From the sequence record MK562505: a DNA stretch of 64,000 nt. One strand, 5' to 3'. The translations under genes and the position numbers were made by a program. Every line of letters begins with the position of its first letter. Position 1 is the stretch's first letter. The notes beneath the pieces are model-generated. The model saw nothing but the letters and a program-made list of their open reading frames with translations, did not search any database and was not told the DNA's origin. The stretch is from Shigella phage Silverhawkium. Below are positions 59,546 through 64,000 of this stretch, one piece after another.

Positions 59546-59621
59546 TGGAGTATCGGAAGGGACTCGAACCCTCATAAACCTGTTTTGCAGACAGGAACAT
59601 ATCCATTTCTGTCACCGATAC
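59546..59621 (-). tRNA. tRNA-Cys (anticodon GCA)
   Basis: manual cloverleaf; anticodon loop CTGCAAA; T-loop TTCGAGT; CCA encoded. Confidence 0.7.
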
Positions 59622-59627
59622 ATAATT

Positions 59628-59720
59628 TGGAGGAAGATACCAGACTTGAACTGGTACGCCGATTTCTCGGTTACTGGCAGTTTAGCAAACTGCTCCCTTA
59701 CCTGTTAGGGTTAATCTTCC
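59628..59720 (-). tRNA. tRNA-Ser (anticodon GCT), long variable arm
   Basis: anticodon loop TTGCTAA; type II variable arm; T-loop TTCAAGT. Confidence 0.65.
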
Positions 59721-59722
59721 AG

Positions 59723-60457
59723 TTATTTGTTAAGTGCATCTTTCATTTCTGGTGTAGAGATAGAGTCAATAACACCAGTCTTACAAGCATCATCAAACCA
59801 GTCTGGTAAGACATTTGCAAGAAAACCGTTAATGTTTGTCTTAAGATACTCAGCCATCAATGCTACTTCATCAGCAATCATCTGTGTGACTTCTGAAGCG
59901 TATGCAGTAATCTTTGACATACCTTCATTAATCGCTGTAACAGCTTGTGAGGCTAAATCTTCGATTGTATCAAGCCCTTGGTCAATTGCATCTTGTAAGT
60001 CGCTTAGAACGCCGTTTACAGCGTCTATGGAGGTGTTTATAATCTCCATAGCTTTGTTACCATACTCAGTAGCAACTCCCATAATCCCACTGAATGGCGT
60101 ACAACCAACTTGTTCACCTGCTGCTCCCATTACATTAGAGTAGCCTTTTGCCACCTGCATTCGTTGAGAGAACTCATCTACAGATTTCTGACCATACTCA
60201 GTCAGTGTAGTGGTTGTTGAAGTTGTACTGCCAAGACTTGTTGTGAAGCTACTTAAGAGTGCTGCTGTTAATCCAGCCGCAATAAGCTTATCTTGCACAG
60301 TCGGGTCTGTTACGGAACTAATAGAGTTTACTAATGACTGAGAGGCAGCAATTGTACCACCAAGGACTGCTGCACCAGTAATAAGAGGGTTTGAGAAACC
60401 ATTACCAGTTTTAAGGAGATTAAAAATCTCTTTACTTTGTTCTGTCATCTCTTTCAT
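59723..60457 (-). CDS. membrane protein embedded in the tRNA array
   Basis: 245 aa from MKEMTEQ (TAGGTG RBS); two hydrophobic segments, Ser/Thr-rich stretch, acidic helical C-terminal domain. Confidence 0.5.
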   Translation of the reverse strand: MKEMTEQSKEIFNLLKTGNGFSNPLITGAAVLGGTIAASQSLVNSISSVTDPTVQDKLIAAGLTAALLSSFTTSLGSTTSTTTTLTEYGQKSVDEFSQRMQVAKGYSNVMGAAGEQVGCTPFSGIMGVATEYGNKAMEIINTSIDAVNGVLSDLQDAIDQGLDTIEDLASQAVTAINEGMSKITAYASEVTQMIADEVALMAEYLKTNINGFLANVLPDWFDDACKTGVIDSISTPEMKDALNK

Positions 60458-60473
60458 TATGCACCTATAAAGT

Positions 60474-60546
60474 TGGTAGCCCATCGGGATTTGAACCCTG
60501 TTCTCATGTTTTTCAGACAAGCGCTTTAACCATATAAGCTAATTGA
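60474..60546 (-). tRNA. tRNA-like element, isotype unresolved (possibly aberrant)
   Basis: acceptor pairing and TTCAAAT T-loop present; no canonical anticodon stem or D-stem found. Confidence 0.3.
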
Positions 60547-60547
60547 G

Positions 60548-60624
60548 CTATTAAATTGGGGTGACCTACGGGAATCGAACCCGTATAGACCATGTTCACA
60601 GCATGGGTCATTATCCATTTATGA
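60548..60624 (-). tRNA. tRNA-His (anticodon GTG)
   Basis: anticodon stem CCATG/CATGG, loop CTGTGAA; T-loop TTCGATT. Confidence 0.7.
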
Positions 60625-60664
60625 TAAGGCCACATTTAAGGACTCTCGTAAGAACCCTTAGAAG

Positions 60665-60740
60665 TGGCAGCAGTATAAGGATTTGAACCTTAATCTTTCA
60701 GCTTCAGAGGCTGGAGCATTGCCAGTTATGCTATACTGCT
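60665..60740 (-). tRNA. tRNA-Gln (anticodon CTG)
   Basis: anticodon loop CTCTGAA with one stem mismatch; T-arm TAAGG/CCTTA. Confidence 0.55.
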
Positions 60741-60746
60741 AATATT

Positions 60747-60817
60747 TGGTACTCCATATCGGATTCGAACCGATACATAACACAGATTTTAAATCTGGCC
60801 TCTCTGCCAATTGGAGT
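60747..60817 (-). tRNA. short tRNA-like gene, anticodon unresolved (possibly TAA)
   Basis: good acceptor and T-arm (ATCGG-TTCGAAT-CCGAT); anticodon region folds non-canonically. Confidence 0.4.
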
Positions 60818-60827
60818 AATGGAGCCT

Positions 60828-60903
60828 TGGCGGGGGATGATGGAATTGAACCATCTTCTTCGATTTCAAAGACCGAGGTTTTAACCTTGTAAACTAATCC
60901 CCT
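60828..60903 (-). tRNA. tRNA-Gln (anticodon TTG)
   Basis: anticodon stem TCGGT/ATCGA, loop CTTTGAA; A1-C72 mismatch. Confidence 0.6.
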
Positions 60904-60911
60904 ATTAAATT

Positions 60912-60988
60912 TGGTGCAGAATAGAGGATTCGAACCCCTAACAAACAACTTCGTAGATTGCTGTTCTATCCATTTGAACTAATTCTGC
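60912..60988 (-). tRNA. tRNA-Arg (anticodon ACG)
   Basis: perfect acceptor GCAGAAT/ATTCTGC; anticodon loop CTACGAA. Confidence 0.6.
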
Positions 60989-60989
60989 A

Positions 60990-61232
60990 TTATCCGATAA
61001 GGACACCATAAAGTTTTAACTCTTCATTAGTGTCTCTTCTGCTTAAGACTGACTCTCTAAAATCTTTAGCAATATTCTTTCGAGATTCCTGTCTAGCTCT
61101 CTTCTTATCTCTTCTGAGAAAGCGTTTACGATGGTCTGTACGCCATTTGTAATAATCTTCTTCACCATCATGTGCTGCACAGCAGCCACAACTTGCAATT
61201 TCAACTTTACCGTGTCTACCATAAGGTTTCAT
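60990..61232 (-). CDS. small basic Cys-containing protein within the tRNA array
   Basis: 80 aa; SCGCCAAHDGEED then Arg/Lys-rich segment. Confidence 0.4.
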   Translation of the reverse strand: MKPYGRHGKVEIASCGCCAAHDGEEDYYKWRTDHRKRFLRRDKKRARQESRKNIAKDFRESVLSRRDTNEELKLYGVLIG

Positions 61233-61248
61233 AGGAATCTCCTAAAAT

Positions 61249-61326
61249 TGGTACTCCAAGACGGATTCGAACCGTCACTAATACAAGGTTTGAGCTTGCA
61301 TCCTCTACCAATTGGGATACTGGAGC
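61249..61326 (-). tRNA. tRNA, isotype uncertain (anticodon reads CAA, short variable arm)
   Basis: T-arm GACGG-TTCGAAT-CCGTC; anticodon stem GCAAG/CTTGT, loop CTCAAAC. Confidence 0.45.
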
Positions 61327-61327
61327 A

Positions 61328-61402
61328 TGGTACTCGCTGAAGAACTTGAATCTTCTTCACCAACTTGTAAGGATGGGGTTTTACCGTATAAACTAAGCGA
61401 GC
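61328..61402 (-). tRNA. tRNA-Val (anticodon TAC)
   Basis: anticodon loop CTTACAA; T-arm GAAGA-TTCAAGT-TCTTC. Confidence 0.6.
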
Positions 61403-62899: not shown

Positions 62900-62901
62900 A
62901 T

Positions 62902-62978
62902 TGGAGGTTCAGGTGGGAATCGAACCCACATTCATAGGGCTTATGAAACCCTTGCATTACCTTATCTGCGACTGAACC
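62902..62978 (-). tRNA. tRNA-Met (anticodon CAT)
   Basis: perfect acceptor GGTTCAG/CTGAACC; loop TTCATAA; T-arm GTGGG-TTCGATT-CCCAC. Confidence 0.65.
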
Positions 62979-62982
62979 ATAT

Positions 62983-63058
62983 TGGTAGAAGTGGAGGGAT
63001 TCGAACCCGTCGCCTGTCAGATTAAAAGTCTGCCGCATCACCATTCTGCTACACTTCC
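62983..63058 (-). tRNA. tRNA-Lys (anticodon TTT)
   Basis: anticodon loop CTTTTAA; weak T-stem as in the other Lys tRNA. Confidence 0.55.
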
Positions 63059-63247
63059 ATTAAATCATCTTTGCAGTAACCTACGCAAACCTTGCTAAAG
63101 GGTTTGTAGAGTCATCTCTTAGTAAGCTAATCTAGAATCATGCTCAAGAGACTCTTCGGCACTCATGGGACGACTGGTTAGCTCCATAAGTCACTGCAAA
63201 GGTGATTACCAGACCGTTGTTATCTTAAGTGCTTCCATTACACCAAC

Positions 63248-63320
63248 ACGCCGTAACGTGTGAAGGAATCGAACCTTCGCCTTTTCTTTACCAGAGAAAT
63301 AGATTGTTTAACTTGCTGTA
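63248..63320 (-). pseudogene. tRNA-like fragment (T-arm + anticodon arm reading GGT) without a pairing acceptor stem
   Basis: T-arm GAAGG-TTCGATT-CCTTC and TTTCT-CTGGTAA-AGAAA present; 5' region replaced by the spacer motif. Confidence 0.3.
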
Positions 63321-63338
63321 AACGGTCTTCTGTAAATT
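63313..63338. repeat. spacer motif copy A (TTGCTGTAAACGGTCTTCTGTAAATT)
   Basis: one of four related copies in tRNA spacers. Confidence 0.6.
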
Positions 63339-63389
63339 GTTGGAACCAGACCAAGTTTTAAATTTTTCAAAATTAAATTGGCTTGAAAT

Positions 63390-63410
63390 TTTAAGTGACT
63401 TGCTGTATTT
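63390..63410. repeat. spacer motif copy B (TTGCTGTATTTGGTCTTCTGC)
   Basis: degenerate copy. Confidence 0.5.
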
Positions 63411-63480
63411 GGTCTTCTGCTCCTTTAAAGAATACTCGCAAGAACTCTTTAAGGGAGGGGCTAAATAGCCCTCTCAAAAT

Positions 63481-63557
63481 TGGCGGCTACGATGAGACTT
63501 GAACTCACATCATCTCCCGTGACAGGGGAGTATTTTCTCCAGTTAAACTACATAGCC
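63481..63557 (-). tRNA. tRNA-Asp (anticodon GTC)
   Basis: anticodon stem CTCCC/GGGAG, loop CTGTCAC; T-arm GTGAG-TTCAAGT-CTCAT. Confidence 0.7.
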
Positions 63558-63562
63558 TTTAT

Positions 63563-63650
63563 TGGTGTGCCGTGTAGGAGTCGAACCTACCGAGTCTCAA
63601 TGACAAGGGATTTACAGTCCCCACCGCTACCATCTACGGGATAACGACAC
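63563..63650 (-). tRNA. tRNA-Tyr (anticodon GTA), long variable arm
   Basis: anticodon loop CTGTAAA; about 15-nt variable arm; T-arm GTAGG-TTCGACT-CCTAC. Confidence 0.65.
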
Positions 63651-63659
63651 ATTTAAATT

Positions 63660-63736
63660 TGGCGGTTAGTCAGGGATTCGAACCCTGTACCATTCGGTTA
63701 ACAGCCGACCGCACATGCCTTATGTGCTTCCTAACC
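63660..63736 (-). tRNA. tRNA-Asn (anticodon GTT)
   Basis: D-stem GCAC/GTGC; anticodon loop CTGTTAA; T-arm CAGGG-TTCGAAT-CCCTG. Confidence 0.65.
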
Positions 63737-63793
63737 ATGTTAGTATTACCAGACCGTATCTTTTCATTTTTTCCGATAAAAAATTTTAAGTGT

Positions 63794-63819
63794 TTGCTGT
63801 AAACGGCCTTCTGTAAATT
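63794..63819. repeat. spacer motif copy C (TTGCTGTAAACGGCCTTCTGTAAATT)
   Basis: immediately adjacent to the 3' end of the tRNA at 63820. Confidence 0.6.
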
Positions 63820-63896
63820 TGGAGGCGGGTGTAGGAGTCGAACCTACCGATACCATGCTAATGAGACATGTGAGACGCCCTTTCTCTATACCCGCA
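63820..63896 (-). tRNA. second tRNA-Met-like gene (anticodon CAT) with unpaired 1:72
   Basis: anticodon stem CATGT/GCATG, loop CTCATTA; T1-C72 mismatch. Confidence 0.5.
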
Positions 63897-63956
63897 ATTC
63901 TTAATGACCAGACCAAATCTTTTTTGGATTTCTATGCGCGAAATTGAAAAGTTTGT

Positions 63957-63980
63957 TTGCTGTAATTGGTCTTCTGTCAA
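63957..63980. repeat. spacer motif copy D (TTGCTGTAATTGGTCTTCTGTCAA)
   Basis: immediately adjacent to the partial tRNA at the window end. Confidence 0.55.
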
Positions 63981-63983
63981 AAC

Positions 63984-64000
63984 TGGCATTCCCGAAGGGA
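63984..64000 (-). tRNA. partial tRNA (3' end only; cut by window edge)
   Basis: tgg + discriminator + 7-nt acceptor complement, then start of a T-stem. Confidence 0.3.

Follow-up and report, generated by a model that had tools for sequence, protein, structure and literature searches.

Region 59546-64000 of a 64,000-nucleotide (nt) stretch of DNA from Shigella phage Silverhawkium (sequence record MK562505; the whole stretch is referred to here as the window) carries an array of transfer RNA (tRNA) genes interspersed with open reading frames (ORFs) and structured spacers, all on the minus strand. The members of most interest are three tRNA-Leu genes with short variable regions, a tRNA-Trp gene with an enlarged connector, and a 130-nt tRNA-like element resembling a bacterial Y RNA. 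ARAGORN called 24 tRNA genes between 59546 and 63896, and among these are all 20 that a sequence-only reading of the same DNA had folded by hand. In the default Rfam run, 21 genes reached the gathering score of RF00005; tRNA-His was matched only in a permissive run, in which tRNA-Tyr and tRNA-Ser(UGA) matched the Sec model of the tRNA clan. An additional weak Rfam tRNA match (35.5 bits) was found at 63254-63317. A CCA end is encoded by 23 of the 24 called genes, the exception being tRNA-Ser(UGA), and also by the tRNA-Trp gene. A 7-base-pair (bp) acceptor stem, 2-nt connector and 5-bp T stem were found in all genes except those for tRNA-Phe, tRNA-Trp and both tRNA-Lys.

The 4.5-kb stretch is 92–93% identical to Mooglevirus genomes over 98% of its length (Escherichia phage 3HA14, Shigella phages Sf13-Sf18 and Citrobacter phage Michonne), with identical gene order. 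A total of 355 phage records matched the island, nearly all of them Ounavirinae. In these relatives the array goes on past the last Met gene with tRNA-Glu and tRNA-Pro, so that the window end truncates it. Taking the explanation developed below as a whole, we consider it likely that the region is a tRNA and small-RNA island of a lytic Felix-O1-like phage (Ounavirinae, Mooglevirus-type). The tRNA array as such is already known: 22 tRNAs were published for Felix O1, and a computational study of 2025 dealt with the 26 tRNAs of Shigella phage Sf14 (PMC12482277).

Leucine and tryptophan tRNAs of unusual architecture

Three genes with leucine anticodons, UAA (60747-60825), CAA (61249-61326) and UAG (61826-61902), are 77–79 nt long including the encoded CCA, and have variable regions of 7, 6 and 5 nt, respectively. 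None of the three has the long variable arm typical of class II (at least 10 nt, forming a stem-loop). The sequence-only reading had reported such short arms in two genes, TAG and CAA; the arms are indeed short, but the TAA gene has to be added and the count is three. When aligned with Escherichia coli leuW and the tRNA-Leu of phage T5 (85 nt each), the phage genes match from end to end save for a gap of 6–8 nt at the variable arm. All three have a Leu-type D arm with a 3-bp stem and an 11-nt loop (NAAUUGGNAGA). Nucleotides A14, A15, G18, G19, A20a, U48 and A73 are present in tRNA-Leu(UAA), and U8, A14, A15, G18, G19, A21 and A73 are invariant in the alignment with leuW and T5. Leucyl-tRNA synthetase (LeuRS) of E. 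coli reads A73, A15-U48, G18G19, A20a and D/T-loop contacts, with no need for the anticodon or the long arm (PMC9976931); these identity elements are all kept in the three genes of the window.

Covariation was assessed in 8 distinct Leu sequences (orthologs and paralogs) from Mooglevirus, Felixounavirus, Kolesnikvirus and Pectobacterium phage Arno18, using the 8 in-register rows of a 13-sequence MAFFT alignment and leaving out the five out-of-register rows. The type-I cloverleaf was paired in 96.9% of cells, with compensatory changes in 16 of 20 pairs, as against 34–51% of cells and 3–6 compensatory pairs in register-shifted controls. Among the columns scored, A73, A14, A15, G18 and G19 were invariant in all 8 sequences, which come from four phage groups. 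The wobble pair G1.U72 was present in 6 of the 8 and is conserved across genera.

The tRNA-Ser genes (GCU, 59628-59720, variable arm 21 nt; UGA, 62151-62240) and the tRNA-Tyr gene (GUA, 63563-63650, variable arm 15 nt), all class II and called by ARAGORN, retain their long arms. Loss of the arm from tRNA-Leu alone fits the requirements of the synthetases, seryl-tRNA synthetase (SerRS) requiring the arm and LeuRS not. Because the LeuRS determinants are retained while the anticodon and the variable arm are dispensable, we infer that the three tRNAs are leucylated. In the tRNAscan-SE table published for Sf14, the CAA and TAA tRNAs obtain their best score with the Leu isotype model, and each of the three Leu tRNAs carries the label ‘consistent’ (PMC12482277). 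There is thus strong inferential support for regarding the three genes as functional descendants of class II tRNA-Leu with a truncated arm. The word ‘variable’ does not occur in the Sf14 paper, which leaves the short variable regions of its Leu tRNAs unmentioned (PMC12482277), and full-text literature searches returned no description of arm-less tRNA-Leu in phages. Phage T5 was considered as a precedent for a short tRNA-Leu and ruled out, its tRNA-Leu being an 85-nt class II molecule. An identity review places the long arm of tRNA-Leu in all organisms but animal mitochondria (PMC9976931). A natural armless tRNA-Leu in the enterobacterial cytoplasm would contradict this textbook rule, and the phage genes would offer a ready-made natural test of the identity rules of LeuRS.

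Two further features of these genes were noted. A G1.U72 wobble instead of G1-C72 opens 7 of the 24 tRNAs (Lys-UUU, Lys-CUU, Arg-UCU, Val, Leu-UAA, Leu-CAA and Leu-UAG). Different relatives have one or the other of two unrelated tRNA sequences in the Leu-UAG slot, as seen when the window gene was compared with six relatives' loci; the second type starts with GGGAGAUUGACGGUAAUUGG, has a 3-nt connector and shows covariation in its anticodon stem, while a short variable region and A73 are common to the two.

The element at 62254-62336, for which the sequence-only reading had noted about 7 extra nt before the D arm of a Trp-like gene, does have an enlarged connector, 10 nt long (GAUGUUAAGA) where 2–3 nt are normal. 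The acceptor stem AUGGGAC/GUCCCAU (A1-U72) is followed by G73 and an encoded CCA; the D stem CAC/GUG (3 bp) closes the loop UAAGGCAU, the anticodon loop is CUCCAAA above a stem with C31.A39, and the T arm is UGGG-UUCGAAU-CCUA. This gene was missed by ARAGORN with default settings and appeared only as ‘tRNA-???’ at a lowered threshold. In Rfam it scored 21.5 bits against the Sec model of the tRNA clan. The 18 pairs of the fold are intact in each of four distinct sequences, which represent seven phages. Changes on both sides affect five pairs (D stem, one; anticodon stem, three; T stem, one), and register-shifted controls showed no double changes.

Full-length copies of the gene occur in 235 phage records, and in none of 30 sampled rows was it annotated as a tRNA. 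Its anticodon CCA (C34 C35 A36), G73 and A1-U72 match the identity elements of tRNA-Trp in bacteria. In Kolesnikvirus phages the tRNA-Trp is canonical and 76 nt long, and its anticodon arm is homologous. Salmonella phage D1-2, which lacks the aberrant gene, has another tRNA-Trp, of 71 nt, in that part of its array, which looks like a functional replacement. Sf14 was reported to cover 19 amino acids, Trp being the missing one (PMC12482277). The element is a structurally aberrant but evolutionarily constrained tRNA-Trp(CCA) gene, which would complete the set of 20 amino acids; together with the Glu and Pro genes of relatives, the island would then decode all 20. Such a gene would lift the decoder set of these therapeutic and typing phages from 19 to 20 amino acids, which is relevant to the view that such phages substitute for the tRNA pool of the host.

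A tRNA-mimicking element and its predicted Ro60-fold partner

The sequence-only reading had also described an element at 63248-63320 with only anticodon and T arms. The Rfam tRNA match (63254-63317) does consist of an anticodon-like arm and a T arm, but alignment and folding of seven phages showed that 63248-63320 is the 5' two-thirds of a larger structured element of 130 nt (63207-63336). The ends of this element form an outer helix (UUAC/GUAA), an internal loop (AGA/G) and an 8-bp inner helix (AGACCGUU/AACGGUCU). A single-stranded ACAGCAA follows the 5' strand of the inner helix and leads into a V hairpin, the loop of which (CUGGUAA) is read by the tRNA model as a Thr-GGU anticodon and is not conserved. 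An invariant T arm (GAAGG-UUCGAUU-CCUUC) comes next, followed by a closed acceptor-like hairpin of 6–7 bp with three compensatory pairs and a D arm (GUG-UAAUGGAAG-CAC).

YrlA, a tRNA-mimicking bacterial Y RNA that binds Ro60/Rsr, is built of V, T, acceptor-like and D modules (PMC4201824). In the consensus fold, pair counts support the same architecture here: an end helix enclosing V, T, closed acceptor-like and D stem-loops. The comparative evidence thus indicates that 63207-63336 is a YrlA-like Y RNA, a predicted tRNA mimic with a loop closing its acceptor-like stem. With no RF02553 match and no CGAA motif (see below), it is considered YrlA-like by architecture and context and is not filed under RF02553.

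Three shorter sibling hairpin RNAs in nearby spacers, A (63906-63980), B (63747-63817) and C (63342-63423), share the closing helix and the ACAGCAA motif with this element and have variable, AU-rich interiors. The closing helix of sibling C reads GGAGC-AGA-AGACCAAA ... CUUGGUCU-G-GUUCC. The outer helix covaries among copies (UUAC/GUAA in the 130-nt element, UGAC/GUCA in A, GGAGC/GUUCC in C), as does the inner helix. A covariance model built from the 130-nt element, designated R1, gave 50 bits for B and 36 bits for A.

In Citrobacter phage HP1 (5789-5917) and in two IMG/VR loci (L099, 4675-4811; L085, 4788-4918) the acceptor-like loop begins with G-CCA or A-CCA. These loci resemble a circularly permuted tRNA gene, with a 3' half plus CCA, a linker of 4–5 nt and a 5' half. 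For the window copy the order of the halves fits such a gene, but there is no CCA and the anticodon-like loop is not conserved. RNase P cleavage and a CCA end have been reported for Mycobacterium smegmatis YrlA (PMC4201824), and the G/A-CCA loops of some phages fit such cleavage and tailing.

In every Mooglevirus, Felixounavirus and Suspvirus locus examined, a 471-amino-acid protein is encoded right after tRNA-Pro, beyond the end of the window. It was assigned DUF2828 and DUF7788 by Pfam and ‘RNA-binding protein’ by PHROGs; TROVE was not assigned by Pfam at the sequence level, and a sequence/profile search against the PDB gave only a marginal match to the Ro60 vWA domain (E 0.34). The AlphaFold2 model (mean predicted local distance difference test score 85.6) was more informative. 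The top 12 Foldseek matches in the PDB were all Ro60/Rsr/TROVE structures, including Ro60 of Thermus phage phiLo, and covered the full length (505–582 aligned columns, E ∼1e-7). The predicted structure comprises a HEAT-repeat ring and a vWA domain with a MIDAS (metal ion-dependent adhesion site) motif, and its DVSGSM aligns with the DVSASM motif of Ro60.

The element and this gene were found together. R1 scored 113–173 bits in 9 of 9 loci that carry the DUF2828 gene, and at most 28 bits (tandem-tRNA noise) in five loci without it (Kolesnikvirus, Arno18 and T5). A Ro60-type gene adjoins the Y-like element in all 8 relatives' loci that have the element, and in unrelated phages as well: Klebsiella phage phi1_175008 has two R1 copies (55–57 bits) beside its DUF2828 gene, and an R1 match of 31 bits adjoins a mycobacteriophage gene annotated as ‘Ro-like RNA binding protein’. 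The Rfam YrlA model scored 34–38 bits at these Klebsiella phage and mycobacteriophage sites and 31–39 bits overall on DUF2828-adjacent RNAs of other phages, which is below its gathering score of 69. Across 75 diverse IMG/VR loci with DUF2828, all 18 R1 matches lay on the strand of the gene, most of them within ∼1 kb; they avoided tRNA calls with one exception, and three had overlapping or adjacent YrlA matches. In 16 Y-like RNAs, 94.9% of cells were paired and 26 of 32 pairs were compensatory, as against ∼42% paired cells in shifted controls, although the alignment had been fitted to the R1 model, which favours the model's structure.

tRNA genes flank the DUF2828 gene in the nine IMG/VR loci that were scanned with Rfam. 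DUF2828 genes of many unrelated phages were seen in or beside same-strand tRNA arrays, often with one or two unannotated tRNA-mimic RNAs. This suggests that DUF2828 genes in many phage tRNA islands may come with such RNAs. A full-text literature search on DUF2828 in phages returned nothing relevant; the presence of Ro60 with YrlA in phages had been noted in 2014 for mycobacteriophages and others (PMC4201824).

Other unusual members and remaining features

The gene at 60474-60549, called tRNA-Phe(GAA) by ARAGORN and scoring 38.4 bits in Rfam, has A73 and a non-canonical but conserved architecture. The sequence-only reading, which had placed this element at 60474-60546, was right that it is irregular but had located the fault in the anticodon stem, which is nearly canonical (4 of 5 pairs, with a U.U mismatch caused by G28 -> U in this phage alone); the irregularity lies in the acceptor/T region. 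The D arm is normal and the anticodon loop is CUGAAAA. The acceptor has 6 bp, the connector 4 nt, and the T stem three G-C pairs plus non-pairs, with one extra nt at the acceptor-D junction and one nt short on the 3' side. Five sequences from four genera contained seven compensatory pairs, and their 6-bp acceptors (AGCUCA, AGUCCA, GGGUUA and GGUCUA) are all perfectly paired. Recurrence of the architecture with four acceptor sequences indicates a conserved variant.

Both tRNA-Lys genes, CUU (61743-61818) and UUU (62983-63058), were called by ARAGORN and have the weakened T stems that the sequence-only reading had described: GAUGGG/CCCUC and GACGGG/CCCUC, respectively, giving three G-C pairs and two non-pairs in the standard register. 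Read otherwise, the stem is GA[N]GGG/CCCTC with one bulged base. The two genes are paralogs sharing GA[U/C]GGG...CCCUC, and the Lys-CUU ortholog of Pectobacterium phage Arno18 has a canonical T stem. The anticodon loop of Lys-UUU (CUUUUAA) is that of the host. The ARAGORN-called tRNA-His(GUG) (60557-60633) has C73 and G1-C72 like E. coli tRNA-His, but G-1, which is required by histidyl-tRNA synthetase (HisRS), is not encoded, base -1 being T. This base is likewise not G in orthologs from Mooglevirus, Felixounavirus and Suspvirus, some of which are annotated as pseudogenes.

The remaining tRNA genes are more regular. Those called by both ARAGORN and Rfam are Cys(GCA) (59546-59621; canonical, CCA encoded), Gln(CUG) (60665-60740), Gln(UUG) (60828-60903), Arg(ACG) (60912-60988), Val(UAC) (61328-61402), Gly(UCC) (61580-61654), Ala(UGC) (61661-61736), Arg(UCU) (62502-62577), Ile(GAU) (62825-62899), Asp(GUC) (63481-63557) and Asn(GUU) (63660-63736). 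The 3' end of tRNA-Ser(UGA) reads ...ACUUACC-G-CC-U, with an incomplete CCA. Two genes called by ARAGORN have a CAU anticodon and U73 (62902-62978 and 63820-63896, the latter also with a U1.C72 mismatch and U37); candidate roles are elongator Met, Ile2 (lysidine) or initiator-like. tRNA-Thr(UGU) (61498-61573), also called by ARAGORN, is 93–95% identical to that of unrelated Escherichia phages of ∼145–149 kb such as phi92, which suggests that single tRNA genes are exchanged between phage families.

Two ORFs are embedded in the array. One, of 244 amino acids (59723-60457), is annotated in relatives as ‘putative membrane protein’. The other (60990-61232, between tRNA-Leu(CAA) and tRNA-Arg(ACG)) encodes a very basic product of 80 amino acids (MKPYGRHGKVEIASCGCCAAHDGEEDYYKWRTDHRKRFLRRDKKRARQ...); the same slot holds a holin-like gene, an HNH gene or no gene in relatives, and it thus appears to be a variable insertion point within the array.

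Four spacers, at 61403-61497, 61903-62150, 62578-62824 and 63059-63206 (minus strand), are conserved in length and sequence among relatives and fold well. The 95-nt Thr-Val spacer RNA is highly conserved and folds strongly (alifold energy -28 kcal/mol), the Ile-Arg and Ser-Leu spacers show three and two compensatory pairs, respectively, and the conserved ∼150-nt spacer RNA at 63059-63206 has a long closing stem with six compensatory pairs. By analogy with the tRNA region of T5, the larger conserved spacers may encode additional small RNAs that are stable. A promoter-like TTGACA-17-TAAGAT (62782-62810) lies within the conserved 247-nt Ile-Arg spacer. Weak Rfam matches to tmRNA_permuted (62698-62885), YrlA (60488-60611) and Dicty Class I RNA (repeats A and B) were set aside as tRNA-derived noise or sub-threshold.

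We propose that the island would be transcribed polycistronically from the minus strand, with 62810-62782 as the one good promoter-like site, that host RNase P and other host tRNA-processing nucleases would excise the precursors, and that host synthetases would charge the island tRNAs, including leucylation of the three Leu tRNAs by host LeuRS. The four Y-like RNAs would bind the Ro60-fold DUF2828 protein encoded immediately upstream of the island in relatives, and the resulting particle may serve RNA surveillance or counter-defence.

Alternative explanations and comparison with known systems

Three origins had been suggested for the atypical elements in the sequence-only reading: degenerating genes, tRNAs that evade anticodon nucleases, and tRNA-like regulatory RNAs. 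The last applies to 63248-63320 only, as part of the YrlA-like RNA, since the genes for Leu, Lys, Phe and Trp have the look of functional tRNAs. Under the first, the atypical elements would be decaying pseudogenes, drifting relics of duplicated or acquired tRNAs. Consistent with this, the tRNAscan-SE-based annotation of D1-2 flags Ser, His, Ala, Tyr, Asn and a Trp-type gene as ‘Pseudo’ and that of Mushroom flags His and Tyr; the Trp-like gene is missed by predictors, the tRNA-Phe of the window has acquired its extra U.U mismatch, and the Sf14 tRNAs were found to be thermodynamically less stable than those of the host (PMC12482277). However, all atypical elements are conserved across Mooglevirus, Felixounavirus and Suspvirus, and partly in Kolesnikvirus and the Pectobacterium phage, at 87–100% identity in hundreds of genomes. 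Stem substitutions are overwhelmingly compensatory (Trp, Leu, Phe and the Y-like element), the Phe architecture persists with four acceptor sequences in four genera, and encoded CCA ends and identity nucleotides are intact. Decay is therefore very unlikely in our judgement, and conservation and covariation indicate that the oddities of the Leu, Phe, Lys and Trp tRNAs are fixed, lineage-specific variants maintained by selection. A still less credible proposal, which we regard as extremely unlikely, is that the three Leu-anticodon tRNAs carry another amino acid, resulting in recoding of UUA, UUG and CUA or in deliberate mistranslation. The hallmark class II arm is missing, many phage tRNAs here are inconsistent with isotype models (Sf14, PMC12482277), and yeast mitochondria do reassign CUN by means of a UAG-anticodon tRNA. 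Against this stand A73, the Leu-specific D arm and core, the full-length alignment with leuW, the top Leu isotype scores of the Sf14 CAA and TAA tRNAs (PMC12482277), and the lack of G3.U70 or any other foreign identity signal in the Leu genes.

Selection could also have favoured the remodelled tRNAs as a means of escape from host toxins that target tRNA, either anticodon nucleases or the AbiEii/MenT nucleotidyltransferases that dock on the variable arm, with translation supply being secondary. Phage tRNAs that evade anticodon nucleases and retron effectors are known (PMC10264068 and PMC11555353). Of the three class II families only Leu can drop its arm yet keep its identity (PMC9976931), only Leu has done so here while Ser and Tyr retain theirs, and loss of an arm that is universal outside animal mitochondria calls for an explanation (PMC9976931). 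Evasion of anticodon nucleases found no direct support, however, as the oddities affect variable, D, T and acceptor regions and not the anticodon loops, and the classical targets (Lys-UUU, Tyr, Asn and Asp) have the same anticodon loops as their host counterparts; the authors of the Sf14 study likewise rejected nuclease escape (PMC12482277). No toxin is known to target enterobacterial tRNA-Leu via its variable arm, AbiEii left M. tuberculosis tRNA-Leu unmodified in vitro, tRNA-Leu is not a preferred target of MenT3, and the dropping of a dispensable arm could be neutral streamlining. On balance toxin escape seems unlikely as the main force, and the narrower suggestion that loss of the Leu arm is an escape from toxins docking on the class II arm (MenT3, possibly AbiEii) is speculative and of low probability. 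We are similarly doubtful of a broader proposal, in which the island is a coordinated counter-defence module that combines rebuilt tRNAs escaping shape-reading toxins with a Ro60-like protein and its four Y RNAs. If it were true, the Leu arm, the Phe and Trp acceptor/D junctions and the Lys T stem would have been rebuilt where identity rules allow, and the Y RNAs and Ro60-like protein would act as decoys, survey or repair tRNA damage, or redirect host polynucleotide phosphorylase (PNPase). A last alternative concerns the 130-nt element and its siblings, which might be not Y RNAs but fused halves of two dead tRNAs, with the CAGAAGACC...GGUCUGG repeats being processing sites, terminators, promoters or a mobile repeat. 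The T arm and D arm of neighbouring tRNAs are a known false-positive pattern for YrlA (PMC4201824), R1 gives weak matches on tandem tRNAs, Rfam matches the element as a partial tRNA, and both an Rfam YrlA match and the CGAA motif are missing. Yet a covarying closed hairpin between the T and D arms would not be expected of unrelated tRNA ends, covariation among the four copies extends to both the outer and the inner helix, the element strictly co-occurs with the Ro60-fold gene in the sampled loci, and R1 detects candidate partner RNAs beside DUF2828 genes of unrelated phages, at sites that also score with the Rfam YrlA model. The repeats have no conserved -10/-35 spacing and no U tract, and as candidate sigma-70 promoters or terminators they were rejected, a scan giving no more than shuffles. 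Together these make the combined alternative improbable.

Several observations weigh against the reading preferred here, in which the island holds working but remodelled tRNAs and YrlA-like Y RNAs. The Rfam YrlA model (RF02553) gave no match on 63190-63350 at E<=10, and the GNCGAAN0-1G / CGAA motif of YrlA is absent outside the T loop, (U/A)CAGCAA being conserved instead. R1 matches occurred in only 13 of the 75 metagenomic loci, R1 being a narrow model, and Vibrio phage nt-1 has a DUF2828 gene with no Y-like RNA or tRNA detectable within 3 kb. The Ro60-like gene lies outside the window, and its presence in this genome is predicted from synteny in relatives. The Lys T stems are invariant within the group and provide no informative variation for their fold, and tRNA-Phe (U.U mismatch) and tRNA-His (no G-1) may be poor substrates. 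Function throughout is deduced solely from conservation and covariation in the sequence, and the tRNAs of Bas63 were reported to be mostly non-essential on laboratory hosts (PhageMaP preprint).

As a member of a known group, the present island shares its tRNA order, embedded ORFs and spacers with those of Felix O1, wV8, Moogle and Sf14; the Sf14 paper counted 19 amino acids, missed the Trp gene and left the spacer RNAs undescribed (PMC12482277). The tRNA region of phage T5 is likewise a large array, in which small ORFs, HNH genes, promoters and stable RNAs other than tRNAs are interspersed, and its ‘tRNA-like stable RNAs’ (RNA1, RNA2 and RNA3) are analogous to the conserved structured spacers seen here. 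T5 differs in having no sequence or model similarity to the Y-like element (R1 <=20 bits), a normal class II tRNA-Leu and, in the stretch examined, no DUF2828 gene. The tRNA-Leu of E. coli and T5 has 85 nt and a stem-loop arm, whereas the phage tRNA-Leu described here has 77–79 nt and 5–7 unpaired nt in its place; engineered arm-less tRNA-Leu and the tRNA-Leu of animal mitochondria are likewise armless and keep the LeuRS determinants.

For the Ro60-like gene, the nearest counterpart is gp130 of Bas63 (Felixounavirus), which has the homologous position upstream of the tRNA stretch and the same structural similarity to Ro60. In the PhageMaP preprint (2024), gp130, described as Ro60-like and directly upstream of tRNA genes, counters the Ppl defence system, and the authors raise the possibility that Y RNAs are among the annotated tRNAs. 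Unlike that suggestion, the candidates presented here are four unannotated spacer elements, of which one is tRNA-like and for which binding is a prediction only. Four candidate Y RNAs beside a Ro60-like counter-defence gene would make the published guess directly testable in a tractable phage of E. coli, Shigella or Salmonella. Thermus phage phiLo offers a precedent, in that its Ro60 binds two Y-like (Yrl) RNAs as well as host PNPase. The RNAs of the island differ from known YrlA in having ACAGCAA beside an AGA/G loop, a predicted DUF2828/DUF7788 partner in place of TROVE, and a location inside a tRNA array. The 130-nt element nevertheless has the same end helix and module order as the known YrlA and Yrl RNAs of Salmonella, M. 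smegmatis, mycobacteriophage and Thermus phage phiLo (Yrl1/Yrl2), and known Y RNAs adjoin a gene of the Ro60 fold, as the element does in relatives, with several of them at one locus.

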